IMG/VR virus record: IMGVR_UViG_2848576382_000012 | Span: 2,793-66,792 of that record | Direction: 5' to 3' (one strand) | Length of the DNA: 64,000 nt | Origin: a virus | Taxonomy: Duplodnaviria > Caudoviricetes | Shown here: in pieces, positions 1-64,000 of the stretch | Position numbering within the stretch: position 1 is the first letter of the stretch | How the letters are laid out: each line of letters starts with the position of its first letter | Notes under the pieces: generated by a model | What the model saw: only the letters and a program-made list of their open reading frames with translations | What the model was told of the DNA's origin: nothing | Database searches by the model: none | Program-made: the position numbers and the translations under genes

Positions 1-18
1 CTGACATAGGCATTATTC

Positions 19-294
19 CTAGACGGTGGTTAATTGCGTGGTGATACTATTTCGAACGTTCTGAGCGGAATGCTCAGAAGTAACATTTTGTCCGAATACC
101 CAAATATGATAATCGATCATATTTACGCGAAACGCATACCAGTGCTGCTCTGGCGCATTCTCAATTTCTTTTAGAGTCATTGCAACAATCTGACCGGAGG
201 TGTCGCGCTGTACTTTCATTACATTGGTTATATAAACAATATTTGCCGTATTCACAACCTGACCAGCTGGCAAAGTAATAAATCTTGCCATCAC
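19..294 (-). CDS. Hypothetical phage protein
   Basis: 91-aa ORF co-oriented with neighbours; AGGAG-like RBS upstream. Confidence 0.6.
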   Translation of the reverse strand: MMARFITLPAGQVVNTANIVYITNVMKVQRDTSGQIVAMTLKEIENAPEQHWYAFRVNMIDYHIWVFGQNVTSEHSAQNVRNSITTQLTTV

Positions 295-321
295 TTTTTC
301 TCCTGTTATCGCCTACGTTAA

Positions 322-831
322 TTATATTTGATAAAAAACATGTTGCCCGTAACATATGTAGGTATCTATAAATCGATCCCGTGTATAGACTTCCCAATCA
401 AAATATAACCTGCATATCTCAGGGATCGCTTCATCATCTAAAAAATCGCTGTCGTACTGTATAATAAAATCGCTCTCTGATTCTAATGGTGCAAGTGTGG
501 TAATATATGCGTCTTCAAATTTTTCTTTATCAACGATATAAAGAAGATTCGTACAGTATTCATAATAGGCGTCTTGGCTATCGCCACTTAACTCAGATAA
601 TACGTCTATATATTCCCAGTTCAGATGCCCCTCTTTTTTAAGTGCTTCTTTGGGAATATCTATCCAATCGGGAAAAAAGTAACTATCGTCTTCATCCAGT
701 TCCCCGTAAAAAGTCTTAATGTTCTCTAAAAAATCGTCTTCATCCGTATAATCCAGTAGATCAAACCAGCGTCCGTGACTAGGATCTTGTGCGAAACGTT
801 TTTTTGTCGTGACAAAAATAGCAGGTGTCAT
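322..831 (-). CDS. ardA: ArdA-family antirestriction protein (acidic DNA mimic)
   Basis: Very acidic; G-x-W-FDL-x-DY-x-D N-terminal motif, DWIDIP, C-terminal YFDWEVYTRD...GQHVF. Confidence 0.85.
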   Translation of the reverse strand: MTPAIFVTTKKRFAQDPSHGRWFDLLDYTDEDDFLENIKTFYGELDEDDSYFFPDWIDIPKEALKKEGHLNWEYIDVLSELSGDSQDAYYEYCTNLLYIVDKEKFEDAYITTLAPLESESDFIIQYDSDFLDDEAIPEICRLYFDWEVYTRDRFIDTYICYGQHVFYQI

Positions 832-987
832 ATTCAGACCTCGCAGATAAATAATATTTCTTTTCGATGAATACTATTCTCTTTTTGTATGCACCTATGT
901 CAAATGAGTACGGAATATAACCCATAGAATTAATGAGATAGGTGCTGTTTTTATTTTATGAAAGGATGTTCTGTCAGAAGGGAGCAA

Positions 988-1419
988 CTAATCAATTAAA
1001 GCGCGTATTGGTGTCCAGATTTCTTGCCCTAAACCTGCACCATAATCCATTAAACCCTCGTATTTTTGACTAAATTGCTCTGACATTTTCGGTTCCTGTT
1101 CATAGGTCTTAAAAATGAAATGATTCAGTAAAAATAGGGTTGCCGTAATACCAACTTGTTCTGGTGATAAATCTTTAAAAGATGAACCATTTTCTGACCA
1201 TAACGAATAGCCACTATCAGGACAAATTAATATTGATTGATTAGAGAGTTCATAATATGAATAAGAATCCCCGTTATAATCCTCGGCGTATCTATCCATC
1301 CAGTTATAAAGATAGGTCTCTGCATTCATAAAATAATGACCAAAATGACGGGGTAAAAAAGCCAGCATTCTGTCATATCTGATTTCCTTTTTCGTGATGG
1401 GTTCTATACCTGAAAGCAT
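988..1419 (-). CDS. ArdB/KlcA-family antirestriction protein
   Basis: RMLAFLPRHFG, YNWMDRYAEDYNG, YYELSN, LSPEQVGITATLF and C-terminal IRALID match the Antirestrict family pattern. Confidence 0.8.
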   Translation of the reverse strand: MLSGIEPITKKEIRYDRMLAFLPRHFGHYFMNAETYLYNWMDRYAEDYNGDSYSYYELSNQSILICPDSGYSLWSENGSSFKDLSPEQVGITATLFLLNHFIFKTYEQEPKMSEQFSQKYEGLMDYGAGLGQEIWTPIRALID

Positions 1420-1540
1420 AAGTCACTCCTCAATTAATTGAGTTATTAAAGATAAATAGGTGACAATCAAACGATTATTGTTTGACCTAATTCAGTCAGG
1501 TTATTTTCTCAAGTAGAGTGTGTATGTCAAATTAGGGGGC

Positions 1541-1722: not shown

Positions 1723-2007
1723 TTAGAGGAAGTAATGAGCGTGATTCATTTGTTGATGGAGGATACGCACAATGAAAATATCGTTTTCTCGGATCTTATA
1801 AAAAATCGTATGTTTGTGAAACTCAATGCGCATAACGTCAGGAACAACATCGTATTCCCTCCCAATATGCGGCATTCTGGCTAATGTATCGAAGAACTCT
1901 TCTAATGCCTCCGTATATTGGTCAGCCTGAGCTTCACCAAATTGCCGGAATGTATAGTCATAAATTCCGGCAAAATCTTCGGCTGCCTGTTTTGAGAGTC
2001 TATACAT
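1723..2007 (-). CDS. parE: ParE-family toxin
   Basis: MYRLSKQAAEDFAGIYDYT..FGEAQADQY, HTIFY, IVRILHQQM; ATG at 2007 overlaps the antitoxin stop. Confidence 0.88.
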   Translation of the reverse strand: MYRLSKQAAEDFAGIYDYTFRQFGEAQADQYTEALEEFFDTLARMPHIGREYDVVPDVMRIEFHKHTIFYKIRENDIFIVRILHQQMNHAHYFL

Positions 2008-2242
2008 TGTGTTTACGCTTCCTCTGCTCCGCAATATCCCGTAAGGTTAATGCACTTTCACCACTTTCCAGACCCGCAATAACCGCCTTGCGTATCACTT
2101 CATCATGCGCTTCCTGTTGTTCAAGCAGACGCAATGCGGAACGCATCACTTCACTGGCGTTTCCATAGCGACCGCTTTCAATCATACGCTGAACAAATCC
2201 GTCGAGCTGATCGCCCATACTAATCGTTGTAATCTTTCTCAT
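2000..2242 (-). CDS. parD: ParD-family RHH antitoxin
   Basis: ISMGDQLDGFV..IESGRYGNASEVMRSALRLLE, GLESG; directly upstream of parE. Confidence 0.88.
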   Translation of the reverse strand: MRKITTISMGDQLDGFVQRMIESGRYGNASEVMRSALRLLEQQEAHDEVIRKAVIAGLESGESALTLRDIAEQRKRKHNV

Positions 2243-2381: not shown

Positions 2382-3509
2382 TTATTCCCCAAAATATGCC
2401 GCGTGTAAGACATCACCCATTGGTGTGCCTGGCTGAGTGGTGCGTGACCATGCTTTTGCTGCAGGAAAAATTTGTATCCATTTTGACAATGTTTCGCGGC
2501 CTTGTATCGTTCGGGGTTCTGGCAGGGAAATATCCACATAGGAGAGAATACCCTCCGCACCTGCAAATTGCTCCGGTTTTGCCTCTATGCCATCGGGGTT
2601 ACCAAAAAAGGAGGATATTAGACGGCTAAAGGTGAATGATCCTTTTAGTTCGAGCACATCAAATCGTGCTTCGTAGAACTGCGCACGGTCAAATAAGCCG
2701 TTGAGTAAGATTTCTGTACCCTGACATTGGTAAAATTCAGCATCATAGAACTGACCCACGAACGTGGTTTTATTAAAGATACAATTTACGAATACCGTTT
2801 CATTGTATATGCCGTCCAATGTCGCGCCCGTAAAATCTTCATCAACAATCACATGGCGTGAGTAATCCTTATTTAAGCGCCGTTTGTCAGCCGCTTCCAT
2901 CCGATAAACTTCCCGCGATGGGCGTACTTTTTTGGGGGGAATTTTATTATCCGATCCCGTCATACTGCTCGCGTCTGATAAACTCACGGGATATTGCGGA
3001 CACATGGTCGCAATGGCCGATTGCCTTAACTGGTCAATGACTTCGGGTTTTGCGCCTTTGCGTTTAGCCTGCACAATTTTGCACCATATGGTGTCCAGCT
3101 CGCCGTTTTTGATGATTTCATCCAATAAGCTCATCGCCGCATAATACTGGGGAGCATCAGGATTGTGTTTAAAGTATCCTGTTAACAATGCGGCTCGCAG
3201 CAGGCGTGGTACAGTCATACCTACCTGTTTATCCAATTTCGGCCCCAGATAGTTTGTTGCTACGGTTGTCCGCTGGACGCCAAATAAACGCGCAATACCG
3301 ACGGTATTCAGATCCAGTATTTTCATCCATGCCCGAATATCCGACACACGCGGACACGCAGGATTCTTCGGCCCCCAACGTAATAGTTCCCGTGTTTCCG
3401 CCAGATTACCCTGCATATAAAACCACACCGTTTCTTTTAGCTGCGCCTGCATAGCCTCTGTGGTTTCTTTTAAATAACTGTTCTCTACGAACCTTGCCCC
3501 TTGTGACAT
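2382..3509 (-). CDS. Protein with N-terminal HTH-like region and C-terminal pentapeptide-like repeats
   Basis: LNTVGIARLFGVQRTTV helix-turn-helix pattern; EDFTG ATLDG..TVFVN CIFNK TTFVG..AEFYQ..AQFYE ARFDV repeats; start at 3509 has an AAGGGGGA RBS. Confidence 0.6.
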   Translation of the reverse strand: MSQGARFVENSYLKETTEAMQAQLKETVWFYMQGNLAETRELLRWGPKNPACPRVSDIRAWMKILDLNTVGIARLFGVQRTTVATNYLGPKLDKQVGMTVPRLLRAALLTGYFKHNPDAPQYYAAMSLLDEIIKNGELDTIWCKIVQAKRKGAKPEVIDQLRQSAIATMCPQYPVSLSDASSMTGSDNKIPPKKVRPSREVYRMEAADKRRLNKDYSRHVIVDEDFTGATLDGIYNETVFVNCIFNKTTFVGQFYDAEFYQCQGTEILLNGLFDRAQFYEARFDVLELKGSFTFSRLISSFFGNPDGIEAKPEQFAGAEGILSYVDISLPEPRTIQGRETLSKWIQIFPAAKAWSRTTQPGTPMGDVLHAAYFGE

Positions 3510-3580
3510 TAGTCCCCCTTTTAGACCCTTATGTCTTATCACTGTTCTGGAATTTTATGCCTCAACCATCCAAAATCCGG

Positions 3581-3865
3581 TTATTTCGTCGTCGGCCATT
3601 GTTGCGCAGCATGAAGAACGCGTAAAACCATCAATATATCCCGTTTAACACGGTATACTAGAATATAATGTGGCCTCACTACGATTTCCCGTGTTCCTTT
3701 TACCCTGCCGGGTTTATACATCTCAGGTTGCAAACAAGCTCGTTCTGCGGACGCTTCAAATTCATCATCAAGCGCAATCGCCGCCTGTGGATTATCCTGA
3801 GCGATATACTCCATAATCTGCTCCCTGTCAGCCAAAGCCATAGGTTTCCACTCAAGACGCATCAT
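3581..3865 (-). CDS. RelE/StbE/ParE-family toxin
   Basis: LEWKPMALADREQIMEYIAQDNPQAA, GRVKGTREIVV, YILVYRV, LRVLHAAQQWP. Confidence 0.88.
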   Translation of the reverse strand: MMRLEWKPMALADREQIMEYIAQDNPQAAIALDDEFEASAERACLQPEMYKPGRVKGTREIVVRPHYILVYRVKRDILMVLRVLHAAQQWPTTK

Positions 3866-4302
3866 ATCCTCTTACGTAGATTGTCTTTTAGGGACGCAAA
3901 ATGACGTTTGGCGTCTTCATGTACTATCGCTGGGCGCGGATCGTCAAGAGATGTTTGTATCTGTGTTCTGAACCATTCATCATAGGCCGCCGCTTCATGC
4001 GCCCGTTTTAACGCCACGGCTCTATCTGGACGTGCATTCTTGCTCTGGTGTTCTGAACTGTAGTTGGACGCATCAACATTAAACTGTGCAATACCTACGT
4101 TTTTCAGGTAATTAACTAATGTTTCCAATTTTTTAAACAGCCGTACCTGACGACTGCGTTGAGCGGTTAACGAACACTCTGTCATGCCGTATTTCACTGT
4201 CACTACCCAGCCACCAAGCGTACTCACAACCTGAGCTTCACTAACCACACCCGCTTCAACTAAACGGTATAGCGTGGAATGATCTATAGTTTCTATTGCC
4301 AT
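3862..4302 (-). CDS. Antitoxin (StbC/PaaA2-like C-terminus)
   Basis: EAAAYDEWFRTQIQTSLDDPRPAIVHE motif; ATGA overlap with the toxin. Confidence 0.78.
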   Translation of the reverse strand: MAIETIDHSTLYRLVEAGVVSEAQVVSTLGGWVVTVKYGMTECSLTAQRSRQVRLFKKLETLVNYLKNVGIAQFNVDASNYSSEHQSKNARPDRAVALKRAHEAAAYDEWFRTQIQTSLDDPRPAIVHEDAKRHFASLKDNLRKRI

Positions 4303-4418: not shown

Positions 4419-4775
4419 TCATTTCTTTAAAGCGCATAATACGCCTTCAACAACAAAAAGTACGGCGGTAAACTTCATTGTTTTAGGCCAATCGAACACA
4501 ATATGCTCCACTACCGTATCACTTATTGTAATGCCTACGTGCTCATAATATTTTTTTACGGCAGTCGATGCGGCATCCTGCGCATCCATACTACCTCGGT
4601 GATAAATAACACTTTGCGCATCACGGCTGCGTAATTCGATACGCGCCAGTTGTGTCTCTGTTGCAGGCAGAAATTCGCCTTCTAGCACAAATACTTTAGG
4701 GAAAGTTCCTTCTTTAGATAAATCCAGTAAAACATATTCCGGTTTCATCTGTTCAGTCAGTTCTGACATATTCAT
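4419..4775 (-). CDS. Hypothetical protein
   Basis: 118-aa ORF with GAGGA RBS and upstream TTGACA. Confidence 0.6.
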   Translation of the reverse strand: MNMSELTEQMKPEYVLLDLSKEGTFPKVFVLEGEFLPATETQLARIELRSRDAQSVIYHRGSMDAQDAASTAVKKYYEHVGITISDTVVEHIVFDWPKTMKFTAVLFVVEGVLCALKK

Positions 4776-4827
4776 CTTAAAATTTCCTCTTGTTTTGATT
4801 TACCTTTCGTATCATCAGGCGTAATTG

Positions 4828-4861
4828 ATTTTTCCAAGAAATAGAAGTATGTCAATTGACA
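4828..4861 (-). promoter_or_regulatory. Putative sigma70 promoter of the leftward operon, with palindromic back-to-back -35 boxes
   Basis: TGTCAATTGACA palindrome at 4850-4861; minus strand TTGACA-16-AAAAAT. Confidence 0.4.
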
Positions 4862-5990
4862 AGATTGTTATTTCAGTTTTGCATAAAAATCACGTGATAA
4901 ATTAGAGTGTACTATTAAATTTTTGCTACCACTTTTTAGATAATTATTTAATAAAATCAATTTATTGCGTAGGTATTTTTAAGCGTTGCAGCATTTTTTT
5001 CTCGTTTTTAATCAAGATGTTAAATAGAAAAATTGCACACAATATGACACTTGCTAAAAACTAACAAAAGATCTCGCTAACAATAGAAATAAAAAGAATG
5101 GGAGAAAGCATAGAAGAGAATTTTTTAGGCTCGAAGATCTCGATAGATCTTTTTTGCAAAAAACAGTAAAAAATAGCACGATATTTAGAGAACTAAATAA
5201 TACGTTTATTTATATATTTATTATTAATTAATAATATTATATACATACTTCTTTTTTCTTTCCTCATGCCATTTATATTGCGATTTTTTCTAATAAAAAT
5301 AGCTGTATCTCTGACACAGAGAGAGATAATACATGACATAAGGTGCGCCGATACGTTTAGCAAACGTCTATACAAATTTTATTTCCTGCGCACACTTAAA
5401 TAACAACAGGTTACAAACAACATCACATCAAAGTACAAAATAGTTGTATTATGTCTAATCAGTAACTGATTGATAAAGAAAGGAATAATTTATAATGATT
5501 GTTAATAATATGTATCAGCATGTTAAATAAATGTTTCGTTTGCTTCTGGCTCCCACAGAGCGGCTTGCTACTTGAAATGTACAGAAAGAATCATTCTATA
5601 AATAACGTACAGCGCATTTCTGTACACGGCGGGGATACAGATATGTCATATAGGCTGCTTGCTCTGTGACGCGCACACAGAGAATGAATAAAAAAAAATT
5701 ATGTGTATTAGCATAACTTAATAATACGGTTGAATATTAATTCACTAAAAGTGACTTAATATTCATTTTGACGGTGTATGAAAAACATCTGATTCTCCTC
5801 GGTGAAATAACGGCACCTTACGTATGTGATCGCAAAAAAAGAAAAATAGCCCATTGACCCAGTGAAATGTTTTCGTTTTTGGAATTTATCTTTCTGAATA
5901 ATGAGATCATTTTTCCTCATACAGATTGTTATAAAAACGAAATATGTGATTTCATACAGTATTCTTATTTTTGTTATTAGTATCGAGAAA

Positions 5991-6019
5991 TTGACATAGG
6001 TTAATTAATAACCTATATT
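5991..6019 (+). promoter_or_regulatory. Sigma70 promoter with an overlapping palindromic operator
   Basis: TTGACA-17-TATATT; inverted repeat ATAGGTTA-N5-TAACCTAT at 5996-6016. Confidence 0.65.
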
Positions 6020-6065
6020 GATTGCATATCAGGCAATATAGCCACTTACAGAGAGAGGATTTATT

Positions 6066-6719
6066 ATGTTGACGAATACCGTTAAGACGCAAAAGAAAAG
6101 CGCGGCAAACGCGACTATTGCAGCCGCTGCGATTGCGGATATGAAAAAAGTGAAAGAGACAGTAGCAAAACATGATCAGTACAAACTAAATGGTTTAGAC
6201 GCGCGTAAAACGTTAATTAATGAAGTGTATCGCGTAGCAAAAGCAGATCATAAATTAAAAGCGGAAGTTTTTATTTTCTATGTAACTCAAATAGTTAAAA
6301 AAGGATCAGTGTTAGAAACTGTTTTACCCTTTTTCAAACAAGAAATTAAAGATATGTTTGATAGGGGCGAGCTGAAAGCAACTGCGATTGATAGTAATAC
6401 AGACGAATGCGTCAATGCAGACGTGGTATTTAATAATTTAAGGCGTTTATTTAATGCGGCAAAAAGTCGCTATGATAACGCGAAAAATGGCGGGAAAGGG
6501 GCAGATACACGCGACGACGAAATCAAGGCTAAATCATTCCTCGCGGTAACAAAAATGTGTGATATAGCGGAGGGATTTACTATGTTGCCACAAGCACGAC
6601 AATATAAGCTGATAAAATCGCTTTTCTTACAGCTTGATCCTACCAATCGTTTAGATTTGTTACTGGAACTGGACGCAATGAAAGAACAACCCATTCCAGA
6701 AATTGACGAGATAAAATAA
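6066..6719 (+). CDS. Hypothetical protein (monocistronic, probably early)
   Basis: 217-aa ORF, GAGGA RBS, consensus promoter upstream, terminator downstream. Confidence 0.75.
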   Translation: MLTNTVKTQKKSAANATIAAAAIADMKKVKETVAKHDQYKLNGLDARKTLINEVYRVAKADHKLKAEVFIFYVTQIVKKGSVLETVLPFFKQEIKDMFDRGELKATAIDSNTDECVNADVVFNNLRRLFNAAKSRYDNAKNGGKGADTRDDEIKAKSFLAVTKMCDIAEGFTMLPQARQYKLIKSLFLQLDPTNRLDLLLELDAMKEQPIPEIDEIK

Positions 6720-6740
6720 AAATCAGTGATCTATATTATA

Positions 6741-6770
6741 TGCCTCGTGCTATGCGGGGCTTTTTTATGT
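6741..6770 (+). terminator. Rho-independent terminator, copy 1
   Basis: gcctcgtgctatgcggggc followed by T-tract. Confidence 0.75.
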
Positions 6771-6917
6771 CTGCTATTCTGAACTTAAAAGGCAAAACAC
6801 TATCATTATTTCTTAGATGATTTGATAAAACATTTATGATAGGACTTTTAAGAGGGATATTCTGGAAGCATCAAAATGTATACTTTTTGATAGATTAAAA
6901 ATGTATCAGTTATTAAC

Positions 6918-6947
6918 TGCCTCGCGCTATGCGGGGCTTTTTTGTGT
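6918..6947 (+). terminator. Rho-independent terminator, copy 2
   Basis: gcctcgcgctatgcggggc followed by T-tract; near-identical to copy 1. Confidence 0.75.
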
Positions 6948-7314
6948 CTAATTGACTGAATAGAAAAGGGAACTTTTCATTACGATATAGACAATAAAGC
7001 CTGTCACACTGCGCTTCACTGTCATTAGATAATTAAAATTATATTAATAATCAATAGGTTAATTTATGTTCTATCTGGTGAAAGAAGTACGTTTTAGCCG
7101 CCAGGGAAGTCCCCCTTATGGGAAATTCGGTGGCCATGACGCATGGCGGCCGGTGGGACAACCTTGCAAGATTCTCACCGTTTTTTAAAATATACCGATG
7201 CCCCTATGTCAAAAGAGACCCCTCCCCCCCTTATTTATAATAAAAAACCAACGTGTCCGAGGAGAATGTCGGCTACTATACTTGTTCCAGTAATAAGCGT
7301 ATTAAGGAATAGAG

Positions 7315-7905
7315 ATGAGACACTATACTGTTGAAACCATTCTGGCCGACATGGAAAAAGCATTATCCTCTGTACCAAAGATAACGTATTCCCCCCTTTC
7401 TCTCCCCATAGAAATGTATGAAGGAACACTGGGGCTTGAACTTTATTATTCGCTTGATAAGGTGAAACACCTAACAGATAACGACTGGGATAAACTTATT
7501 TTGGAAGCCCGTAAAAAGGATATTGTTGTTATAGGAAATAAAGATGACACGAGACAATGTATTCAGTTTTGTCGCGGCGAATTTCAAACCACAATGCAGG
7601 ATATCTATTTTGAAGCATTAGACATGACGCCTTATGACGAGGGTGATCAAATGTTTCATGAGTGGTTAAAACTCAACATATCAGCAACTGATTTAGGAAA
7701 ATTATTAGGCGTCAGTGTGTTCTATGCCTGTTGTGCACCTGGGGGTGCTCATGCGGGAGCAGAAATACCACAACATATCGTGGAGCAGGCAAAACAGGCT
7801 TATCTGATTATATCGTTTCGACACCATCTTCGGGTGATAAACGAGCGAGAATATGAACATAAGGTTCCTCATGATCAAATTCATGGCTGCTGTTCTGATG
7901 ATTAG
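7315..7905 (+). CDS. Hypothetical protein, possible HTH in C-terminal half
   Basis: 196-aa ORF, AAGGA RBS; LNISATDLGKLLGVS. Confidence 0.6.
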   Translation: MRHYTVETILADMEKALSSVPKITYSPLSLPIEMYEGTLGLELYYSLDKVKHLTDNDWDKLILEARKKDIVVIGNKDDTRQCIQFCRGEFQTTMQDIYFEALDMTPYDEGDQMFHEWLKLNISATDLGKLLGVSVFYACCAPGGAHAGAEIPQHIVEQAKQAYLIISFRHHLRVINEREYEHKVPHDQIHGCCSDD

Positions 7906-7916
7906 TGTGACGGTAC

Positions 7917-7981
7917 GTTATTGTGCTACTTAAAAGAAGGATTCAGACATAAACTATCACCAATTTAAGTTGGTGATAGTT
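7917..7981. repeat. 65-bp direct repeat, copy 1, containing a 12-bp-stem hairpin
   Basis: gttattgtgctacttaa...aactatcaccaa-tttaag-ttggtgatagtt; 57/65 identical to 10053-10117. Confidence 0.9.
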
Positions 7982-8125
7982 GTAACGACCTAGATAGAAA
8001 TTACAATGCTATTTTTTAAAAAATAAGTTAAAATTAATAGGGTGATGAACGCCACATAATTTCAATTGAAGTTCATTTCCATAATTTTTGTTGATGGTTG
8101 GAATCAAATAAACACGGAATTAAAA

Positions 8126-8449
8126 ATGGATACTAAAAAAGTAGAAGAATTAATGAAAGAAAGTGGATTTACTTTTAAGGATATGGAGTTATTAAAATCT
8201 ATAAATAAAAAGAATGGAACTACATTGTTAGATGAAATGATCAGCTTAGAAGGTCGTTTTTATAGGTTGTTATTTGTTCTTCCTTTTTCTTTCTTAGTTT
8301 TAGCGTACTTTTTTTTAATGGCGGGTGAAGCAAATGTTATAGGGTTTTTTATTGCTTTATTTATTCTGCTTCCTCTTACGTTAGTAATGACAGCTTTTAA
8401 ATTGTCCTATCGGTCGTTTGTGTTTATGAGAAAATACAAACGACTGTGA
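8126..8449 (+). CDS. Two-TM membrane protein, candidate immunity protein for the DUF4225 effector
   Basis: Two hydrophobic segments; convergent with the DUF4225 gene (4-bp gap); ATG at 8126 preferred over 8066. Confidence 0.6.
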   Translation: MDTKKVEELMKESGFTFKDMELLKSINKKNGTTLLDEMISLEGRFYRLLFVLPFSFLVLAYFFLMAGEANVIGFFIALFILLPLTLVMTAFKLSYRSFVFMRKYKRL

Positions 8450-10559: not shown

Positions 10560-10569
10560 AATTAGCTCC

Positions 10570-10941: not shown

Positions 10942-10957
10942 AGTGCTCTCCTTCTAC

Positions 10958-11317: not shown

Positions 11318-11407
11318 TTTATTCATCTCCAAAAAAAATATTAAAAATATGAAATAACGCATCTGGTTAAATTAAAAAAATTAAGCAGATACGTTATTTT
11401 TTTTTAT

Positions 11408-12377: not shown

Positions 12378-12429
12378 TTTTATTTCTCCCAAAGAATCAG
12401 CTCATAACATCATATGAGTAAATGAGTAA

Positions 12430-47324: not shown

Positions 47325-47329
47325 CCGTT

Positions 47330-55493: not shown

Positions 55494-57083
55494 TTAGTCC
55501 CCCTGGTTGTCTTTTAAGAGACTCCTGTAAATATCCAGCAATGTTAATTGAGCATCTGCGCGTCCTGCGGTTATGTCATAAAGCTGTTTTTCCCGTTGAT
55601 CACCCCAGATTTCGGTTACCGTCATATGGTGTGTCTGTCCATTACGTTCCATTCGGGCATTAGCCTGTAAATACACTTCGGTACTGCTATACGGTGCAAA
55701 CCAAATGGTATGACTCGCTGCCGTTAACGTCACACCGTGTGCGAATGCGGAGGGCACACCGACTATCACTTGCATCTGTCCTTTAAGATCATCTTGAAAA
55801 CTGTCGAAGATTTTTTGGCGTGCTGTCTTACTTATCCCGCCGTGGATGACGCCAACCGCAATATTTTTAAGGCGTAAATAACGGGCAATCATATCAACAG
55901 CGGCACGGAATGGCGCAAAAATAAGCACTTTTCCCTCTTCACTGTGAATAATTTCCAGACATTCATTCAACCGTTTCGTGGGTTTCATTTCAACCACTTC
56001 GCCATTTTCAGAAAGCACGGCACCACAACAAATTTGTACCACTTTATTCAATAAAATGGCTTGGTTATCTCCCGTGATATCTTCACCCGCTAAATTAACC
56101 GTCTGCTGAATACGTAACATCTTAATTGCGGCATTTTGTACCGATGTTAAGGGTAAATAACGCGATTCATATACAATTGGTGGCAAATCAATACAATCCC
56201 GTGTTCGAATTCGGATCGCGGGTTTCATGTATTTTGCGACGGTATCCTGCCAACCTTCAAGGGGAAGTCGTTTAAACTCGTTGACTTTCCACGTCGTTAA
56301 ATTTTCCCACCAGTAGATATTCGGCACCGTATTACCAAAACCATCAAACATACAAATCTGGCCGAATGCATCTTTTGGCCCCATTGGTGTGGGGGTTCCT
56401 GTCATTTGCCACGCATACATGGCATTACGCACAAGGGGATAAACCAACGTCCATAAATCCGTTTCCCTGTTCTTTATTTTAGTACTCTCATCCAGAATAA
56501 TCAGGTCGTAATTATTCTGAATAAATTCCTTATGAAGTCCTTTCAACGCTTCGTAATTCGTAATGTGAAACGGTGCATCCGAGGCGACCTGTTCCTGTTT
56601 CTTTTTTACTGACCCTTCAATCACCGTAAAATCTGCCACACCGAACAGCAATTTTGCAGCGGTAGGCTGCCACGCATCCAATAATACGGAAGACGGACAA
56701 AGTACCAGGATCTTTTTTACCAATCCGAGGGTATACAGATAATGAGCCGCCCAGATGCCGATAGCGGTTTTCCCTGTTCCTGTTCCCGCAAAACAATAGG
56801 CTTTTTTTCTAAGACATAAAAAGTCAGCACATACAATCTGGTGCTGATACGGACGAAAATCACTGGGGCCGGGCCAATTATAGTCCCGATAAATAGGACT
56901 AACAGCGGGTAAATTGGCAAACGCCAGGAGTGCCGCATTATAATAGTTCCACTTATAGGCAACTGTATTGTCACCCAGATCAATACGTCCTTCTGGATTC
57001 AACACACGTGCCTGTTCTAGCTCTTGTTCTGACCCCTGAATGACGAGCGCCCGTTGCTGATAGAGTTGCAACGTTGCCATCAT
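55494..57083 (-). CDS. SNF2-family (SF2) helicase
   Basis: PYQHQ, GTGKT, ITNYE, ILDEST, MTGTP, HGVTLTAA, QANARMERNGQ. Confidence 0.92.
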   Translation of the reverse strand: MMATLQLYQQRALVIQGSEQELEQARVLNPEGRIDLGDNTVAYKWNYYNAALLAFANLPAVSPIYRDYNWPGPSDFRPYQHQIVCADFLCLRKKAYCFAGTGTGKTAIGIWAAHYLYTLGLVKKILVLCPSSVLLDAWQPTAAKLLFGVADFTVIEGSVKKKQEQVASDAPFHITNYEALKGLHKEFIQNNYDLIILDESTKIKNRETDLWTLVYPLVRNAMYAWQMTGTPTPMGPKDAFGQICMFDGFGNTVPNIYWWENLTTWKVNEFKRLPLEGWQDTVAKYMKPAIRIRTRDCIDLPPIVYESRYLPLTSVQNAAIKMLRIQQTVNLAGEDITGDNQAILLNKVVQICCGAVLSENGEVVEMKPTKRLNECLEIIHSEEGKVLIFAPFRAAVDMIARYLRLKNIAVGVIHGGISKTARQKIFDSFQDDLKGQMQVIVGVPSAFAHGVTLTAASHTIWFAPYSSTEVYLQANARMERNGQTHHMTVTEIWGDQREKQLYDITAGRADAQLTLLDIYRSLLKDNQGD

Positions 57084-57089: not shown

Positions 57090-57680
57090 TTATGAATATA
57101 CATCATTCAATAATGTTTCCTGCCATAAACCTAATTCTTTGAGTTTATTATCACGGGCTTCTCGGGCCTCTTTAATCGTCTGATAACCACCTTGCTGATC
57201 GAGTCCTTTTCCCCGATAAATGCGCCAGTAAAATGTTTTCTCTTCGCGATTACGGTAAATTCCCGCACGAGGATTACGAAAGAGCTGTGCAATATGAGGA
57301 GAAAGACACACAATATTATCCACGGTACGCGCACAATTATCATCCAGTAATCGAACAAGGCCATTCGGTTCTTTGCCTGTCACGACAGCCCAAATAAGAT
57401 CCAGAATATTTTTCCGTATGTTTCCCGCACCGCTCCCAATAGCGATCCGAACATACGTGTTACTGCCATTCATTGTGATACCGACGTGTTCACCCGCATA
57501 ACGTTGGTTAAACCATGTACAGGAACGCTCTGCCATCCCCTGATCCGCCTGACTGTATTTTCGGTAGAGTTCTGGTGTACGTGCTTTCCAAAAAAGACCA
57601 CCCGTATTCGGATTATAGGTCATTAATGCCTGTAAATCTTTCGCCTTAAGAGTGTGTTTCATTCCATTGTCCTCCGACAA
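57090..57680 (-). CDS. Degenerate HNH endonuclease-like protein with AP2-like C-terminus
   Basis: YNPNTGGLFWK.R..WFNQRYAG N-terminus; HNH residues absent; GGYQTIKEAREARD. Confidence 0.6.
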   Translation of the reverse strand: MSEDNGMKHTLKAKDLQALMTYNPNTGGLFWKARTPELYRKYSQADQGMAERSCTWFNQRYAGEHVGITMNGSNTYVRIAIGSGAGNIRKNILDLIWAVVTGKEPNGLVRLLDDNCARTVDNIVCLSPHIAQLFRNPRAGIYRNREEKTFYWRIYRGKGLDQQGGYQTIKEAREARDNKLKELGLWQETLLNDVYS

Positions 57681-57972: not shown

Positions 57973-58800
57973 TCACTTCTGAACCGTGGCATTAAACGGA
58001 CAGTTCATCACCGGACAATAGGCACACAACGGCGATGTCTGTTCCGGCCAATAATCACGCTCATAAGAATCAATAATACGTAAAGATTCCCGTAAAAATT
58101 TCCGCATTTGTATCGCGTGTCCTTCCTCATGAAGATAGGTTGTATGCGTTTTAACAGTGCCTGCTTCTAAGAATATCAGGGCACTATCAAATTGCGTATA
58201 ATGCTGCATGGTTGGCTGTGCTTTTGCCATGACACTCATTAAATCCAACTGATCGGTTTTAGGATAACGGTCTTTTCCTGTTTTATAATCATACAGATAG
58301 AGTTTTTTTAAACTTCCCATCCCTAAATCGGTTTTTCCCCGCATAAAAACGGCAGACGTATCAAACCAACTTGCTACCTTGCCGTCCGCTTTAATGGCCC
58401 ATTCCTGTTCACCGAACAAAGGAATACCAACACGCTGTTCTGCTACTAAGTTATTAAATTTCTTCTTTAACATATCCGCTACGCCAGTACCGATTTTTTC
58501 TTTCACCACCGCATCCATCAGCTGGCCTTTTAACAGATAATTTTCGTGAGCCTGGTGTACCTGCGTTCCCCATAAGGTGGCTGGGGTGTCAGTATAGGGA
58601 ATGTTATGTGTCAGGTGTTGTTCATAAAATCGTCGCGGACATTGTTGATACTGACTCAGTTTCGAAAATGATAAGGCCAACGACAAAAGTTTACCGCCCC
58701 CAACTGGTTTATGAATTTTATTCGGCCACTCCACATCATGATCCAGAGGATATGCGATTAAGTCGTCTTTTTCTTTTGCTGAAAAGATCACTTTACCCAT
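57973..58800 (-). CDS. PD-(D/E)XK (Cas4/RecB-like) exonuclease
   Basis: SFSKLSQYQQCPRRF, WGTQVH..E, RGKTD, DYKTGK, QLDL, LCAYCPV..C. Confidence 0.88.
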   Translation of the reverse strand: MGKVIFSAKEKDDLIAYPLDHDVEWPNKIHKPVGGGKLLSLALSFSKLSQYQQCPRRFYEQHLTHNIPYTDTPATLWGTQVHQAHENYLLKGQLMDAVVKEKIGTGVADMLKKKFNNLVAEQRVGIPLFGEQEWAIKADGKVASWFDTSAVFMRGKTDLGMGSLKKLYLYDYKTGKDRYPKTDQLDLMSVMAKAQPTMQHYTQFDSALIFLEAGTVKTHTTYLHEEGHAIQMRKFLRESLRIIDSYERDYWPEQTSPLCAYCPVMNCPFNATVQK

Positions 58801-59036: not shown

Positions 59037-59948
59037 TTATATACTCTCCTTTTGACAGTGAGGACAGTGACAGGCCATAAGATGCACACATGGTTCACCG
59101 TTAGATTTTATAAACAAACCATGACAATCTGGACAGTTGTGATGTAAACATGGCTTATCATTTTGAAATTGAGCGGTATTTGATAAGGTGGAAATGCTCG
59201 GTGTATCGGGTTTAGCATACAGAGTGAGCTTGCTATCGGTATCTTCCGTTATAATCTTTCCTAACGGAATAAGTTCGTTGGGGGGAAGAGACTGCCCTTG
59301 TGTGTCCATTTGATAACAGGCGGCGTTAATCTGGCTTGCAAACTGCCAGTACACTGCGAGCTGTCGTGATAAACATTGAGCTTCCCAAAGAGCATCGTGC
59401 TCTGCACGATGTGCTGTGCCTGTATTGGGTGCCCGAATCGGGAAGATCATTTCAAAGGTACGTAGACACGCCCCGTTATAGAACAGCCACGGTAGTGGTT
59501 CCGAATCGTTATTCACTTCACGATATAAGACTTCCATAATCGGACAGTCAAACGCAGCCCCACGCCCCAGTAAATAAAGATTACGAATAGGGAAATGGAT
59601 TTCACCCCAGTTCATATGCGCACTGACGGTTTTTTTAATCCAGGTTGTCATTTCCTGCATGACATCAATAAGTATTGGGGTGTCAGATTCACACGCTTTT
59701 TTAAACCTGAAACGTACTTCGGCTTCTTGACTCATAAGCCACGCCAGTGTGCTAGGTGTCTGTTTAAATCCCCGTGCTACCATATCATGCACATTGACCA
59801 GTGACCCCCACGATCCCAGTATGAGTCCGTCACCCCGCACTAAGGCAAGACCAACCTCCCAAACTAAAGGTTTATCCCCCGCCAGATTAGATAATGTCTC
59901 AACATCGGCAATGAGAAATAACGTATCGCGTTTTATTTTTGGCTGCAC
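59037..59948 (-). CDS. DEDDh 3'-5' exonuclease with C-terminal Cys/His cluster
   Basis: DVETL, RGAAFD, HRAEHDA; CLHHNCPDC..PCVH..CHCPHC. Confidence 0.8.
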   Translation of the reverse strand: MQPKIKRDTLFLIADVETLSNLAGDKPLVWEVGLALVRGDGLILGSWGSLVNVHDMVARGFKQTPSTLAWLMSQEAEVRFRFKKACESDTPILIDVMQEMTTWIKKTVSAHMNWGEIHFPIRNLYLLGRGAAFDCPIMEVLYREVNNDSEPLPWLFYNGACLRTFEMIFPIRAPNTGTAHRAEHDALWEAQCLSRQLAVYWQFASQINAACYQMDTQGQSLPPNELIPLGKIITEDTDSKLTLYAKPDTPSISTLSNTAQFQNDKPCLHHNCPDCHGLFIKSNGEPCVHLMACHCPHCQKESI

Positions 59949-59967: not shown

Positions 59968-62061
59968 TTAGTTGCATTCTTTCAAAAGAGCATCAGCATT
60001 CCTCTGATTAAAACCAGAGGCTATCCAGATAGCTTCATCATATTGATCACCATAGGTTGGGCCTGCGGTCAGCTCACAATCAATAGGTGTCCGTTGCGCC
60101 CAATCGGGGCGCTCTCTCATTCGGTATTGGATTTGTTCACAGCAATAGGAAAGATCTTCGTTTGGTAGAATAAAAATTAATTCATCGTGTACGGTTAAAC
60201 ACCAAAAAAGGCCGTCATTTCGCAGGTTCATCATCATTCCCTGTAGAATACGGGTAGAACTGCCTTGTGTGACATTATTCGCAATAATGCCGCGATAAAT
60301 CTTGCGGGTTTCCCGTTTCTCGGCGTCGGTATACAAAATGATGTCGCGGTTTAATTCATCTTTACCGGCGATCCGAAGATCGTCATAACGCAGTATCCAG
60401 CCATCCGGTAAAATTATCTTGTTTTTCATGGCAATATAGTTGTTTTCATAGCCAAAAGAATAGGTGCCACCATAAAGCATCACGTCTAAGGCATTTTGGC
60501 ACTGCGTCCAGAACTGAACGATATTTTTATAACGGTCACGATAAAGTAAAACAGCGTCATGGCAGAATTCTTTGGTGACATCTAAATCATAGGCTGTGCG
60601 TAGCCGTAAATAAAACGATTCGAACCATGACCCATATTGCAGAGAAAGAATTCCCTCTTTACCGACGTTACGCTCTTTCTTTCGGCCATTTATTTTTGAG
60701 ACTTCATAACCATATAACATCGTTGCAAAGTCAGAATAAGGATCTTCATTGCAGGCAAACTGTAACAGCAAATCGTCCTGTCCGGCATGGTCAGCCATCC
60801 GTCTGGCTTCAATCTGCGATAAGTCGCAGGTGACGACTGAATAGCCTTTCGGTGCCCGTAGGGATTTTCGCAGCGTCAGATCGCCGCCACGTTTGGGGAA
60901 GTTCTGAACATTAATATCCTGATAGCCGACCCAGCGTCCCGTTGTTGCACCAAACGCTTTCAGGGGAACCGGCATCTTTCCTCGATGTGCAATATCTAAT
61001 AGATTTTTGGCCCGTGTGATCCCAATCGTGGACTTCTCGCCCATACGGGCTTCACAGACCGCCTCAAGAAACGGATCGCCCGATGTTAACAGCGCCTTAA
61101 AGCCCATATCCGTTTTAGCAAATGCATACGTCTTTTTTGGTGTCCCGTCCGCATTCTTTGCGGTCTTACTGTCTTTCATAGGAACATCCACACCCAATTG
61201 CGTCAGTACCTCTGCAAATTGAGGGTTTGACGATAAGCGTTTACGAAACGTCTCAACATCTTGTGAAAATGCCTCAGAAATTTTTGCCAGTTTGTCTTCC
61301 TGTAACTGTATCAGGCGCGGGATATACTCACACAGTAACGCCTTATCCAAATCAAACTGACAGACACAACCGGCCCGTATCGTGTCGGACATGGTGACCA
61401 TATCCATTTCAGAGTAGTGCCAACGGAAAAGGCCGTAGAGTGGTGGCAAAAGATCCACATCTCGAAGACCATAATCCCCATACCGCTGTAATCCAGTGGC
61501 CGTAAAATGTTCCAGACGCATTCCCATCACCTGGTGAACTTCTTCTTTCTTATTCGGCAGGGAATACCGTTTTGCTAATTGGGCCAGACTGTTTGCCGCT
61601 TTTGCGCCATGTAATGGCCGCGCCATCGTCATGGTACAGGTAAACTCAAGGGGTTCTATTCCGTAGTAATCTGACAGAATAAAACCATCAAAGGGAAGGT
61701 TGTGTGCGATGACGTTACAGTTGTGTAACATGAGGGCATTCAGTTCTTTTCTTACGGCACCTTTATGGTTCGGTATCCAGTACCGTTCGCCCGTATCAGG
61801 AATAAGAAAGGAGCAAAGTATGACCTGAAAACGGGGATCACGAACATACTTTTCATAGGTCATGCCTTTTGCTGATAATGAATACTTATTGGCAGGATCA
61901 TAAAACGTTTCAAAATCCAGAAAGACTTTCGGAATACGATCAAAATCAGAGGTCAGAGCACGTGTTAGGTTGTGACGGGATTGCTGCTTTTCCTTATCGC
62001 TGAATATATCGTTTTGCAGAATTCCATAATCGTATGCGTATAACATTATGTTACATTCCAA
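59968..62061 (-). CDS. Family A DNA polymerase with 3'-5' exonuclease domain
   Basis: LDFET, AHN..FD; TTGRW, NVQNFP; motif A DLSQIEAR; motif B R..GK...L...YG; motif C TVHDE. Confidence 0.95.
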   Translation of the reverse strand: MECNIMLYAYDYGILQNDIFSDKEKQQSRHNLTRALTSDFDRIPKVFLDFETFYDPANKYSLSAKGMTYEKYVRDPRFQVILCSFLIPDTGERYWIPNHKGAVRKELNALMLHNCNVIAHNLPFDGFILSDYYGIEPLEFTCTMTMARPLHGAKAANSLAQLAKRYSLPNKKEEVHQVMGMRLEHFTATGLQRYGDYGLRDVDLLPPLYGLFRWHYSEMDMVTMSDTIRAGCVCQFDLDKALLCEYIPRLIQLQEDKLAKISEAFSQDVETFRKRLSSNPQFAEVLTQLGVDVPMKDSKTAKNADGTPKKTYAFAKTDMGFKALLTSGDPFLEAVCEARMGEKSTIGITRAKNLLDIAHRGKMPVPLKAFGATTGRWVGYQDINVQNFPKRGGDLTLRKSLRAPKGYSVVTCDLSQIEARRMADHAGQDDLLLQFACNEDPYSDFATMLYGYEVSKINGRKKERNVGKEGILSLQYGSWFESFYLRLRTAYDLDVTKEFCHDAVLLYRDRYKNIVQFWTQCQNALDVMLYGGTYSFGYENNYIAMKNKIILPDGWILRYDDLRIAGKDELNRDIILYTDAEKRETRKIYRGIIANNVTQGSSTRILQGMMMNLRNDGLFWCLTVHDELIFILPNEDLSYCCEQIQYRMRERPDWAQRTPIDCELTAGPTYGDQYDEAIWIASGFNQRNADALLKECN

Positions 62062-62378
62062 GTGATTAGTGGCCTGATAATCAGATAAATTAATCCGATA
62101 AGACAGAAAATCAGTACCCAGTCACCTGATTTTGACATAAAGGCCGGACTTATTGTGTCTTGACGTCGGTCATAAAGCTCTTTTAAACATTGCAAATGAT
62201 GCTCGGCCATTTGTAAATTATCTTTATCATAACGTGTTAGCGTCCCATCATCATGCTGTTCTATTTTTTCTTGTAAATCCGCAATGTAACGAACGAGTTG
62301 TTCTTCATTCAAATCCGCATCTGCATCATATGACCATCCCTGTTCTTCACAGGGGAGAGTGACATGCACGTATTTCAT
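62046..62378 (-). CDS. Hypothetical protein with C-terminal TM segment
   Basis: GAGGT RBS; hydrophobic tail. Confidence 0.6.
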   Translation of the reverse strand: MKYVHVTLPCEEQGWSYDADADLNEEQLVRYIADLQEKIEQHDDGTLTRYDKDNLQMAEHHLQCLKELYDRRQDTISPAFMSKSGDWVLIFCLIGLIYLIIRPLITWNVT

Positions 62379-62426
62379 TCAACCACCTCGATTTATTTCA
62401 TGACGGCTATGAAAAACACCATTGTG

Positions 62427-63551
62427 TTACCTCAGCTGCATTAAAATACGTTTTCCAATCCAACTCATTATGGGAACGGCCATTGCATTGCCGATGACAC
62501 GATAACGATGTCCATCAGGGCAATCCATCGCAGGCTTACCCTTCCACGGGATTTGCGTATGATTATCCGGCAAACCTTGCAAGCGTTCACATTCCAGAGG
62601 CGTTAAACGACGCACGGTATTGGGTGTGGTTATCAAATCCGTCGCATCTTTATAGTCCCTGGATTTCAGCGTCGAAGACATCTCGTCTTGTTTATACGCA
62701 CCAAAGGCCAGCATTCTGTATGTTGATATCAGGCCGCTCCCTCTTTGTGAAAAAATTTCTTGGTTGCTCATTCCTATACCGCCCACATTGTGGCTCTGGT
62801 TTAAGGTCGGATGCGGATAGGTGAAAGAGTCCCAGTGACTACCAATAGAGCTTCTTCCAACGCTTTGGGTAAGACTTTGTTGCGTCGTTTGGCTCGTGTC
62901 AAAATTCCCGCACACGCTGTAGGACTCAAAAAGTATTTCGGCGGGATCGACATCTCTTCTAGCACTTGCGACAACAAACACGCGACGACGACGTTGGGCG
63001 ACGCCGAAATATTGCGCGTCCAACACTCGCCAGGCGACAGTTCGTTGTGGGCCAGACACCAAACCCGCGTTCGTCCATTTTTTCCCTGACGGCTGTAGGG
63101 GGACGTTTTCTCCGGCAAGTCCACCAAGAAAGCATCCAAAAGCATTATCTTTGCTGGATAATACGCCGGGAACGTTTTCCCAGACAATGATAGCTGGGGA
63201 TTCGGTATTTGATGCTCTGACGCTATCAAGGACATTCGCTATCTCCACAAAGGATAAGGTTAATTGCCCCCGTTTATCAATGAGGCCGCTCCGCAATCCG
63301 GCAATACTGAATGCCTGACAGGGCGTACCACCGACAAGAATATCGGGTGCACTTATACTTTGATTCATGATCTTATCTGCCACACAGATCATATCACCAA
63401 GATTAGTTATATGCGGCCAACGATACTGTAATACAGCACTGGGAAAGGCATCTGTCTCGCTAAACCATGCGGGTATTATTCCTAATGACTCCCATGCAAC
63501 ACTCGTGGCCTCTATACCTGAACAAACCGAACCAAAGTGCATCATACTCAT
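62427..63551 (-). CDS. DNA (cytosine-5) methyltransferase
   Basis: SVCSGIEA (I), GGTPCQAFS (IV), ENVPG (VI), QRRRRVF (VIII), RRLTPLECERLQG (IX), GNAMAVP (X). Confidence 0.93.
   Translation of the reverse strand: MSMMHFGSVCSGIEATSVAWESLGIIPAWFSETDAFPSAVLQYRWPHITNLGDMICVADKIMNQSISAPDILVGGTPCQAFSIAGLRSGLIDKRGQLTLSFVEIANVLDSVRASNTESPAIIVWENVPGVLSSKDNAFGCFLGGLAGENVPLQPSGKKWTNAGLVSGPQRTVAWRVLDAQYFGVAQRRRRVFVVASARRDVDPAEILFESYSVCGNFDTSQTTQQSLTQSVGRSSIGSHWDSFTYPHPTLNQSHNVGGIGMSNQEIFSQRGSGLISTYRMLAFGAYKQDEMSSTLKSRDYKDATDLITTPNTVRRLTPLECERLQGLPDNHTQIPWKGKPAMDCPDGHRYRVIGNAMAVPIMSWIGKRILMQLR
62801..63235 (-). CDS. Nested alternative-frame ORF, candidate MTase beta-type subunit
   Basis: 144 codons open inside the MTase gene; GECWTRN...P......LSQVLE..IPPKYFLSPTACAGIL.RA.RR.K.LP. 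Confidence 0.6.
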   Translation of the reverse strand: MSLIASEHQIPNPQLSLSGKTFPAYYPAKIMLLDAFLVDLPEKTSPYSRQGKNGRTRVWCLAHNELSPGECWTRNISASPNVVVACLLSQVLEEMSIPPKYFLSPTACAGILTRAKRRNKVLPKALEEALLVVTGTLSPIRIRP

Positions 63552-63564
63552 AACGTGTTGTTTT

Positions 63565-63951
63565 TCATTTTCCAACTTTTGTATTAATCGTTAATATGAC
63601 TCCATTCGGTAACAGATATCGTGGCCCATCAAGCGTTCCGTTATGAATGGCAGCCAGCCACGTATGAAATACAGACAGGTTGGTTTCATTCACGACAGCG
63701 GCATAACCACCTGCATTGAGTGTCGAGAGTAATCGTCGGCATTGAAGTGCCGTAGGTTTATTTTTTCCTGCCTTGACTTCAACCGCTAAAAATGACCCTA
63801 GTCCGCCCTGCACATCAGGCACACAACATATTCTGTCTGCATGACCACTGCGACCAAAGCCGCCTGTCGTGGGTGTAAGAACATACGCACCCACATGCGC
63901 TAGTAAACTATCGACCTGTTCCTTAACTTTTGATTCGGGGGTACGTGCCAT
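63565..63951 (-). CDS. VRR-NUC domain nuclease (putative Holliday junction resolvase)
   Basis: TPESKVK, GFGRSGHAD, FLAVEVKAG.NKPTALQ, AGG.A.VVNE; GGAGGA RBS. Confidence 0.9.
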   Translation of the reverse strand: MARTPESKVKEQVDSLLAHVGAYVLTPTTGGFGRSGHADRICCVPDVQGGLGSFLAVEVKAGKNKPTALQCRRLLSTLNAGGYAAVVNETNLSVFHTWLAAIHNGTLDGPRYLLPNGVILTINTKVGK

Positions 63952-64000
63952 GATTCCTCCTGTGTTATACCAACCGGTGGCTTCCATAGCGCGTCATAAA

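Follow-up and report, generated by a model that had tools for sequence, protein, structure and literature searches.

The described systems closest to the element reported here are the phage-plasmids, of which the survey by Pfeifer et al. 2021 (PMC7969092) counts 780, with 47 singletons, and states that "few are Podoviridae". Its F116 community includes Klebsiella IncFIB members predicted as Podoviridae, and F116 itself is described there as being without recognisable replication and partition genes. Table 1 of PMC11652158 lists eight well-defined phage-plasmid groups, all of sipho- or myo-type and of 55-111 kb, and records IncFII typing in the P1 and pMT1 groups. We analyzed a stretch of 64,000 bases (hereafter the window), positions 2793-66792 of the 66,792-base contig held as IMG/VR record IMGVR_UViG_2848576382_000012, in which the genes of a short-tailed phage stand together with a RepA plasmid replicon. 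We conclude, with a probability of about 0.8, that the window spans nearly the entire genome of a temperate short-tailed phage whose prophage form is a circular low-copy plasmid, that is, a Xenorhabdus phage-plasmid. It appears to be a new lineage within the known class: each ingredient has a precedent, and it is the lineage and its host that appear undescribed.

The initial annotation of the window, made from the letters alone, had contrasted it with classic phage-plasmids that were said to be myo- or siphoviruses with other types of replicon. For the eight well-defined groups, all long-tailed, the first half of that contrast stands. It was nevertheless drawn too sharply, since a few Podoviridae-type phage-plasmids are known (PMC7969092) and IncFII occurs in the P1 and pMT1 groups (PMC11652158). 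Searches of the literature on Xenorhabdus phage-plasmids and on Xenorhabdus plasmids with terminases, with supplementary catalogues outside their scope, found no description of the element.

Closure, sister contigs and the phage gene set

The first and last 99 bases of the contig are identical, and IMG/VR places it in the class with direct terminal repeats, with a CheckV completeness estimate of 100%. Since an exact overlap of this length is a typical assembler leftover, the contig represents a circular or circularly permuted molecule. The 2,792 contig bases to the left of the window hold five further minus-strand open reading frames (ORFs). Together with the closure of the contig, these place the minus-strand blocks at both window edges in one arm on the circle, as had been proposed from the window alone.

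A search with the large terminase (TerL) recovered contigs of 67,300, 66,914 and 67,540 bp from Xenorhabdus bharatensis CS20, Xenorhabdus yunnanensis XENO-10 and Xenorhabdus innexi DSM 16336, respectively, the last of which is also present as an IMG/VR copy, and RepA was found on the same three contigs (hereafter the sisters). All three are collinear with the window contig over their full length, at nucleotide identities of ~96-98% for X. bharatensis, 75-93% for X. yunnanensis and 75-86% for X. innexi. The sister contigs are circularly permuted, with different start points, and each crosses the end-start junction of the window contig; one carries a 111-bp terminal overlap of its own, and the ends of another map to the adjacent positions 55891 and 55889. 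Host flanks were found on none of the three, and no inversion was seen among the four elements. Two doubts raised in the initial annotation, chromosomal flanks with att sites and a chimeric assembly, are answered by a contig that closes on itself, by three separate relatives of ~67 kb and by the same order of phage and plasmid genes in four independent assemblies. A tRNA scan found no tRNA genes in the window, and a near-identity search of phage and plasmid collections returned no close DNA relative of the 24 kb at 13000-37000.

The initial annotation had also described a complete packaging, head and short-tail operon with ejection proteins and without tape-measure or sheath genes. Most of this description was upheld, namely the TerL, portal and capsid genes, the short tail itself, the fibre and the absence of the two families searched for; the ejection-protein labels rest on PHROG names, domains and gene position. 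The short tail was assigned from a predicted fold. The 609-aa (amino acid) product of 30803-32632 was modelled with AlphaFold2 from an alignment of 17 homologues (mean predicted local distance difference test score, pLDDT, 83.7), and each of its top 32 Foldseek matches in the PDB was a tail or portal-tail complex from a short-tailed phage. The best was the portal-tail complex of phage GP4 (8jov_A, E=8.4e-30, TM 0.63/0.73), and further matches included P22 gp10, T7 gp12, Sf6, SU10, crAss001 and cyanopodophages. On this model, the protein is a tail nozzle or hub of the T7 gp12 / P22 gp10 type. The fold rules out the label "internal virion protein" that the protein would take from its PHROG family (phrog_511), a label that may be misleading for the family as a whole.

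The lytic-transglycosylase protein and the 2305-aa polyvalent-type protein encoded next to it are probably ejected proteins, judging from PHROG names, domains and gene position. A tape measure was considered for the 2305-aa ORF and rejected in view of its LPD38 domain, of its position after the transglycosylase gene, as in E. coli plasmid pSTEC648_2, and of the nozzle fold. Neither the tape-measure family PF10145 nor the sheath family PF04984, the two families searched for, was found in the whole contig, in which several structural ORFs carry no assignment. The YadA-like-repeat gene is the most variable structural gene, the best matches of its product in the sisters being 79%, 70% (over one third of its length) and 50% identical, and this variability fits a receptor-binding fibre under host-range selection. 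On the opposite strand, the replication module that had been read as PolA, primase-helicase and SNF2 helicase was recovered as such by profile searches (PF00476, DUF927 and phrog_62).

The RepA replicon and its predicted antisense RNA

RepA, of 361-370 aa depending on the start, links the element to ordinary plasmids. Its homologues were found by tblastn in 409 of 72,556 plasmid records, 350 of them at a coverage of at least 80%, and the 409 records comprise 204 conjugative, 157 non-mobilizable and 48 mobilizable plasmids. The best matches, at 71% identity, are two ordinary Xenorhabdus plasmids of 29-40 kb, which are absent among the TerL and portal matches listed. In related replicons the gene is annotated "Replication protein", often with a CopB-like "replication regulatory protein" upstream, and some of these replicons are typed IncFII or IncI1; a precomputed PF02387 match was present for 8 of 62 RepA homologues. 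The predicted fold of RepA (mean pLDDT 80.5) had no match in the PDB at E<=0.001, and the weak rows at E ~1-2 included some small DNA-binding regulators.

The region upstream of repA is laid out like an antisense-controlled leader. Its sense strand holds a long hairpin with a UUGGCG loop (46064-46069), a second hairpin, a Shine-Dalgarno sequence and then the 18-codon ORF that overlaps the repA start. A leader ORF is present in 13 of 15 related replicons, and we infer that the leader peptide is translationally coupled to RepA. On the other strand lies a putative CopA-like RNA, with a folding z-score of -2.96 and a promoter-like site at 46156-46128(-). A search with the CopA family alone matched it at the predicted place and on the predicted strand (RF00042, 23.2 bits, E=0.0027, model positions 1-92). 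The terms used for such systems, CopA blocking leader-peptide translation, the rUUGGCG loop motif and the repZ pseudoknot, come in part from PMC10724649.

The 15 replicons compared were those of the window, the three sisters (L006, L007 and L009) and eleven plasmids of the same RepA family; left out were L008, a sister locus identical to L009 in the alignment, and two plasmids (L025 and L026) that are without the TTGGCG motif. When each replicon was folded separately, CGCCAA lay in the apical loop of a long hairpin in 15/15, and RNAalifold over the same set gave 13 pairs, 5 with compensatory changes. Antisense control of repA, which the initial annotation had proposed, thus holds in silico, with the CopA-like match, the shared hairpin, the compensatory pairs and the leader ORF all on its side. 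In the Xenorhabdus group the leader contains a six-base stretch that is complementary to the loop, and such a 6-mer is present in 12 of the 15 replicons; as a conjecture, it could form a pseudoknot of the I-complex type. No CopB gene was detected in any of the four elements, since five CopB proteins used as tblastn queries gave nothing better than E=0.24, while as a control the same proteins do match one another. The resolvase gene stands where CopB would be.

Family searches and inspection of the sequence likewise recovered the rest of the plasmid set named in the initial annotation, with ParFG and parH, a resolvase, two toxin-antitoxin pairs and no integrase. The features of a type Ib partition system are all present: a ParF ATPase, a ParG ribbon-helix-helix protein and an upstream array of 4-bp boxes (period 24 and 3.2 copies by Tandem Repeats Finder), whose arrangement resembles the layout of TP228 parH. 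This locus differs among the elements. X. yunnanensis carries another ParA with a 95-aa partner (L014:1089-2050) and X. innexi a ParM (StbA) with StbB (L020:4170-5631), so that three partition types have replaced one another at a single position in elements that are otherwise collinear, and each sister has some partition system there. The PaaA2-like/ParE pair is kept in all three sisters at ratios of nonsynonymous to synonymous substitution (dN/dS) of 0.07-0.14, and the ParD/ParE pair was found only in the window and X. bharatensis among the four elements. The small serine recombinase was considered as an integrase and rejected, being of 189 aa and without a PF07508 domain. Searches of the families concerned found no tyrosine integrase (PF00589), no large serine recombinase (PF07508) and no relaxase.

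Features of the window in order of position (sisters, the contigs of X. bharatensis, X. yunnanensis and X. innexi)
Feature	Coordinates	Strand	Basis and occurrence
ArdA antirestriction protein	322-831	-	PF07275, E=2.4e-11; all three sisters, 74-96%
Second antirestriction protein (Pfam "Antirestrict")	988-1419	-	PF03230, E=6e-08; all three sisters
ParE toxin; ParD antitoxin	1723-2034; 2000-2242	-	PF05016, E=1e-21; PF03693, E=2.7e-19
Second ParE toxin; PaaA2-like antitoxin	3581-3865; 3862-4302	-	PF05016, E=2.4e-18; PF21217, E=7.6e-10
DUF4225 protein; Hcp	8454-9248; 9251-9730	-	PF13988, E=1.8e-44; PF05638, E=1.5e-21
Four tandem paralogous genes, Gly/Asn-repeat proteins	10137-11770	-	translations; 9-bp tandem repeats
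parG	12138-12392	-	ParG PF09274, E=6.2e-40
parF	12430-13086	-	ParA-type P-loop families, E=1.5e-21
parH-like centromere upstream of parF, GAGT/ACTC 4-bp boxes with 4-bp A+T spacers	13199-13276		read from sequence
YadA-like-repeat protein, 660 aa; probable tail fibre / receptor-binding protein	13435-15417	+	PF05658, PF05662
Small terminase candidate	16060-16755	+	position only
Large terminase TerL	16755-18281	+	phrog_2, E=1.3e-27
Portal	18678-20687	+	phrog_332, E=4e-32; phrog_1216
Major capsid protein	25257-26222	+	phrog_267, E=1.6e-13; dN/dS 0.07
Two virion structural proteins	27830-29024		PHROG profiles
Tail nozzle/hub of short tail, 609 aa	30803-32632	+	predicted fold
Lytic-transglycosylase protein	35584-36453	+	phrog_669, phrog_342, phrog_13449 (joint entry with 36450-43367)
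Polyvalent-type giant protein, 2305 aa	36450-43367	+	LPD38 PF18857, E=4.6e-10, residues 2017-2168
PAS + LuxR-type helix-turn-helix regulator	43806-44495	+	PF08448, PF00196; kept in all sisters
Small serine recombinase, resolvase/invertase type, 189 aa	45294-45863	+	PF00239, E=6.7e-43; PF02796; phrog_125
CopA-like antisense RNA: two hairpins, CGCCAA apical loop in the larger, U-rich tail	46040-46120	-	RF00042, folding
Leader ORF, 18 codons, end overlapping the repA GTG start at 46188 (GTGTATAA)	46139-46195	+	read from sequence
RepA replication initiator	46188-47273 (alternative start 46161)	+	homology to plasmid RepA
Primase-helicase, 983 aa	49882-52833	-	phrog_25314, phrog_8841, phrog_2478; DUF927 PF06048, E=1.2e-22
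SNF2-family helicase	55494-57083	-	phrog_62, E=3.9e-84; PF00176, PF00271, PF04851
HNH endonuclease; two exonucleases	57090-57680; 57973-58800 and 59037-59948	-	phrog_99; phrog_69, phrog_255
Family A DNA polymerase	59968-62061	-	phrog_17, E=6.6e-68; PF00476, 90.1 bits at 60049-61302(-)
DNA methyltransferase; endonuclease	62427-63575; 63565-63987	-	phrog_116, E=2.9e-87; phrog_93

Conservation, proposed life cycle and alternative readings

Matches to window ORFs are numerous in all three sisters, with 59 of 66 in X. bharatensis, 54 in X. yunnanensis and 55 in X. innexi. Common to the four elements are the phage genes, RepA, the resolvase, the PAS-LuxR regulator, one ParE pair and both antirestriction genes. 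The variable part consists of ParDE, the DUF4225 protein, the four Gly/Asn-repeat proteins and the methyltransferase, the last with a close match (95%) in X. yunnanensis only among the sisters. Between the window and X. innexi, 24 of 24 tested genes have dN/dS values of 0.02-0.17 at synonymous divergences (dS) of 0.46-1.10, and these values indicate that phage and plasmid genes are alike under purifying selection, with both halves kept functional. The dS of RepA in this comparison, 0.88, is about equal to that of the phage genes, so that the union of phage and replicon predates the split of these elements.

Hcp belongs to the type VI secretion tube protein family and is encoded directly upstream of the DUF4225 gene; it is 55-56% identical in two sisters, and for the DUF4225 protein none of the three gave a match. 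Together they look like an Hcp-linked effector pair carried as cargo. The products of the four tandem paralogues, also cargo, are 120-140 aa long and have a hydrophobic N-terminus, after which come GGNGGNGG-type Gly/Asn (and His) repeats; family searches gave no match for them, and they are absent from the three sisters. G+C content is 32-46%, mostly below 40%, in the accessory/plasmid arm (1-12000), and 43-49% in the structural module (16000-44000), a contrast that is consistent with separate origins of the arms or with frequent exchange of accessory genes. Neither the small ORFs nor the initial 2.8 kb of the contig gave an informative match in family scans.

Gene content leads us to infer two replication modes and, with them, virion production, the use of RepA for maintenance and a switch between the two states. 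In the plasmid state, replication would proceed from the IncFII/I-complex-like replicon, and an antisense RNA of ~85 nt would be transcribed leftwards from 46120. Its CGCCAA loop would pair with the UUGGCG loop of the repA leader and block translation of the 18-codon leader, thereby lowering the coupled translation of RepA and keeping the copy number low without a CopB repressor. ParF, ParG and parH would segregate the copies, the small serine recombinase would resolve multimers, and the two ParE toxin-antitoxin pairs would kill cells that lose the element. In the lytic state, the genome would be copied by its own family A polymerase, primase-helicase, SNF2 helicase and nucleases, packaged by means of the terminase, portal and capsid, and delivered through the short tail with its nozzle, YadA-like fibre, transglycosylase and 2305-aa polyvalent protein, while ArdA and the second antirestriction protein would shield the incoming DNA.

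The PAS-LuxR protein, the only conserved regulator, is encoded beside the CopB-less replicon and may be a replicon-associated regulator. A homologue (41%) stands divergently beside repA in a Yersinia ruckeri plasmid (L027:60-770), with no CopB annotated there. A more ambitious proposal, which we regard as unlikely, is that this sensor replaces CopB and doubles as the lysis-lysogeny switch, so that an environmental signal of the insect or nematode phase of Xenorhabdus life would set both copy number and induction. On the same proposal, the swapping of partition cassettes (ParFG, another ParA, ParMR) would make it possible for one cell to harbour several related elements.

A number of results weigh against the reading of the window as a temperate phage-plasmid with a replicon of this kind. 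The window RepA matched no family in Pfam, NCBIfam or PHROG, and PF02387 gave nothing even at E<=10. The CopA match lies far below the gathering score of 60, and whole-library Rfam scans returned no family, either over the window at gathering thresholds or over 43300-49400 with permissive ones. The loop-complementary 6-mer also arose in 1032 of 3000 shuffles, which makes it weak evidence for a pseudoknot. Around repA, no convincing iteron repeats were seen, the origin was not located and DnaA-box-like sites were not enriched (5 vs 8.45 expected). Family scans identified no CI/Cro-type repressor, holin or clear endolysin, and the ORFs at 4419-8449 and 48042-49889 belong to no informative family. 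Three distant IMG/VR relatives, with nozzles at 40-48%, are without this RepA, a ParA-type ATPase or an integrase, and the phage backbone may also exist without plasmid genes. Two further ORFs that were compared with a protein atlas, 6066-6719 and 2382-3542, fell into phage clusters at 0.91 or gave weak helix-turn-helix leads at 0.80, and no repressor was assigned from them.

The alternative that survives best, although we hold it to be rather improbable, is a plasmid with a domesticated or defective phage, which would replicate as a plasmid and produce no infectious particles, or particles with another purpose. In its favour, family scans identified neither a lysis cassette nor a repressor, and the element has cargo of the host-benefit type, namely Hcp with the DUF4225 protein and the secreted repeat proteins. 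The state of the phage genes argues otherwise: unlike those of decaying prophage remnants, the structural, packaging and replication ORFs that were tested remain intact across all four elements, with dN/dS values of 0.02-0.16 at dS ~0.5-1.1, and the fibre is the most variable of the structural genes, as expected under host-range selection. The plasmid genes, for their part, bear on a second alternative, a virulent phage that persists in a carrier state or by pseudolysogeny, or else a culture contaminant, in which these genes would be mere accessories. A full maintenance set, made up of RepA with its copy-control RNA, partition genes with a centromere-like array, a resolvase and toxin-antitoxin pairs, is kept or equivalently replaced in every member, and genome assemblies of isolates from three other Xenorhabdus species contain the element as well. 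We therefore give this second alternative only a slim chance, even though lytic short-tailed phages that encode a polymerase have a similar replication module and genes of classical lysogeny were not found. The third alternative, an integrated prophage or a phage and a plasmid joined by chimeric assembly, is scarcely credible: short-read assemblies can misjoin repeats, and distant portal relatives do lie inside large Pseudomonas and Salinisphaera chromosomal contigs, but here the gene order is the same in four assemblies, the contigs are circularly permuted and free of host flanks, there is no integrase, and RepA and the phage genes are similar in synonymous divergence.

Read as a phage-plasmid, the element would add a short-tailed lineage, in a symbiont of insect-pathogenic nematodes, to a class whose well-defined groups have long tails throughout and come for the most part from Enterobacteriaceae or Acinetobacter, and whose members move genes both as viruses and as plasmids. 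Its four members, which differ in nucleotide sequence by up to ~20%, form a natural comparative series, with an unchanging phage core and replicon, swapped partition cassettes of three types and variable cargo. They are also a compact system in which to study how one molecule keeps a copy-controlled theta replicon separate from a phage polymerase replisome.

Relatives and known systems

Searches with the phage genes reach far beyond Xenorhabdus at low identity. TerL matched 2 of 72,556 plasmid records and 24 of 50,697 phage records, all at no more than 31% identity, and several of the best phage relatives bear the "vB_..P_" names used for short-tailed phages. The portal matched 4 plasmid and 36 phage records, among them HMO-2011-type, CHOED and MQM1 phages at 20-29%. 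The plasmids positive for TerL or portal are E. coli pSTEC648_2, P. damselae p2_510 and plasmids from Bradyrhizobium, Massilia and Endozoicomonas. Records of the P1, N15, SSU5, pMT1, pKpn, pSLy3, AB, pCAV and F116-community phage-plasmids were not among the TerL or portal matches listed, nor were any Klebsiella records. The distinct lineage put forward in the initial annotation is thus supported, as far as TerL and portal searches see, and the element would fall outside the described phage-plasmid groups.

Within species-representative genomes, the portal profile found 20 loci, and beyond the three Xenorhabdus contigs identity falls to 24-34%; some of these relatives are embedded in large chromosomal contigs (Pseudomonas, Salinisphaera), which suggests that they are integrated prophages, and others on contigs of 55-60 kb. 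The nozzle profile, applied to the same genomes, found the three Xenorhabdus contigs only. Nozzle homologues at 40-70% identity also occur on hundreds of public contigs, the longest of 59-70 kb with one of 116 kb, and they argue for the existence of a larger family of similar-sized elements.

Among deposited plasmids, pSTEC648_2 (CP061838.1) and p2_510 (NZ_CP090492.1) come closest in organization. Like the window element, both are circular and non-mobilizable; they measure 60.5 kb each and were deposited as plasmids, and both encode a portal homologue together with a Par protein (ParB in the former, ParA in the latter) and a toxin-antitoxin pair. With pSTEC648_2 the element shares TerL, portal, nozzle, PolA, primase-helicase, SNF2 helicase and ArdA, as well as a giant ORF of ~2300 aa at the same position, and the annotated products and window-ORF matches of p2_510 include tail-fibre and capsid genes. 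The distance is nonetheless large, as only 9 of the 66 window ORFs match pSTEC648_2 and 5 of 66 match p2_510, at 21-34% identity, and neither has this RepA. Both are probably unrecognised short-tailed phage-plasmids. The closest cultured phages, by TerL, portal and nozzle structure, are the HMO-2011-type phages, Vibrio CHOED, Aeromonas MQM1, Cronobacter vB_CsaP_Ss1 and Ralstonia GP4; several of these short-tailed phages have genomes of 55-68 kb, and their identity to the element is only 20-31%.

On the plasmid side, the replicon departs from the IncFII (R1/R100) and I-complex (ColIb-P9, IncB, IncK) replicons in having no CopB gene, a RepA below PF02387 and a sub-threshold Rfam CopA score. It agrees with them in the pairing of a CGCCAA countertranscript loop with a UUGGCG target loop and in a leader ORF that overlaps the rep start. 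With the F116 community the element has in common a short-tailed phage kept outside the chromosome and a plasmid-type replicon joined to a short-tailed backbone, the replicon being IncFII-like here, unlike that of the Klebsiella IncFIB members recorded in PMC7969092. It differs from the eight well-defined groups, as tabulated, in its short-tail nozzle fold, its size of 67 kb and its Xenorhabdus host, those groups being long-tailed and from other hosts. What it shares with the class at large (P1, N15, SSU5/pHCM2, pMT1, pKpn, pSLy3, AB and pCAV) is a full tailed-phage gene set on one molecule with a replicon, partition genes and addiction modules. P1 likewise has separate plasmid and lytic replication functions. 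As in the rest of the class, the phage genes of the element are conserved, and its plasmid and cargo genes are variable.

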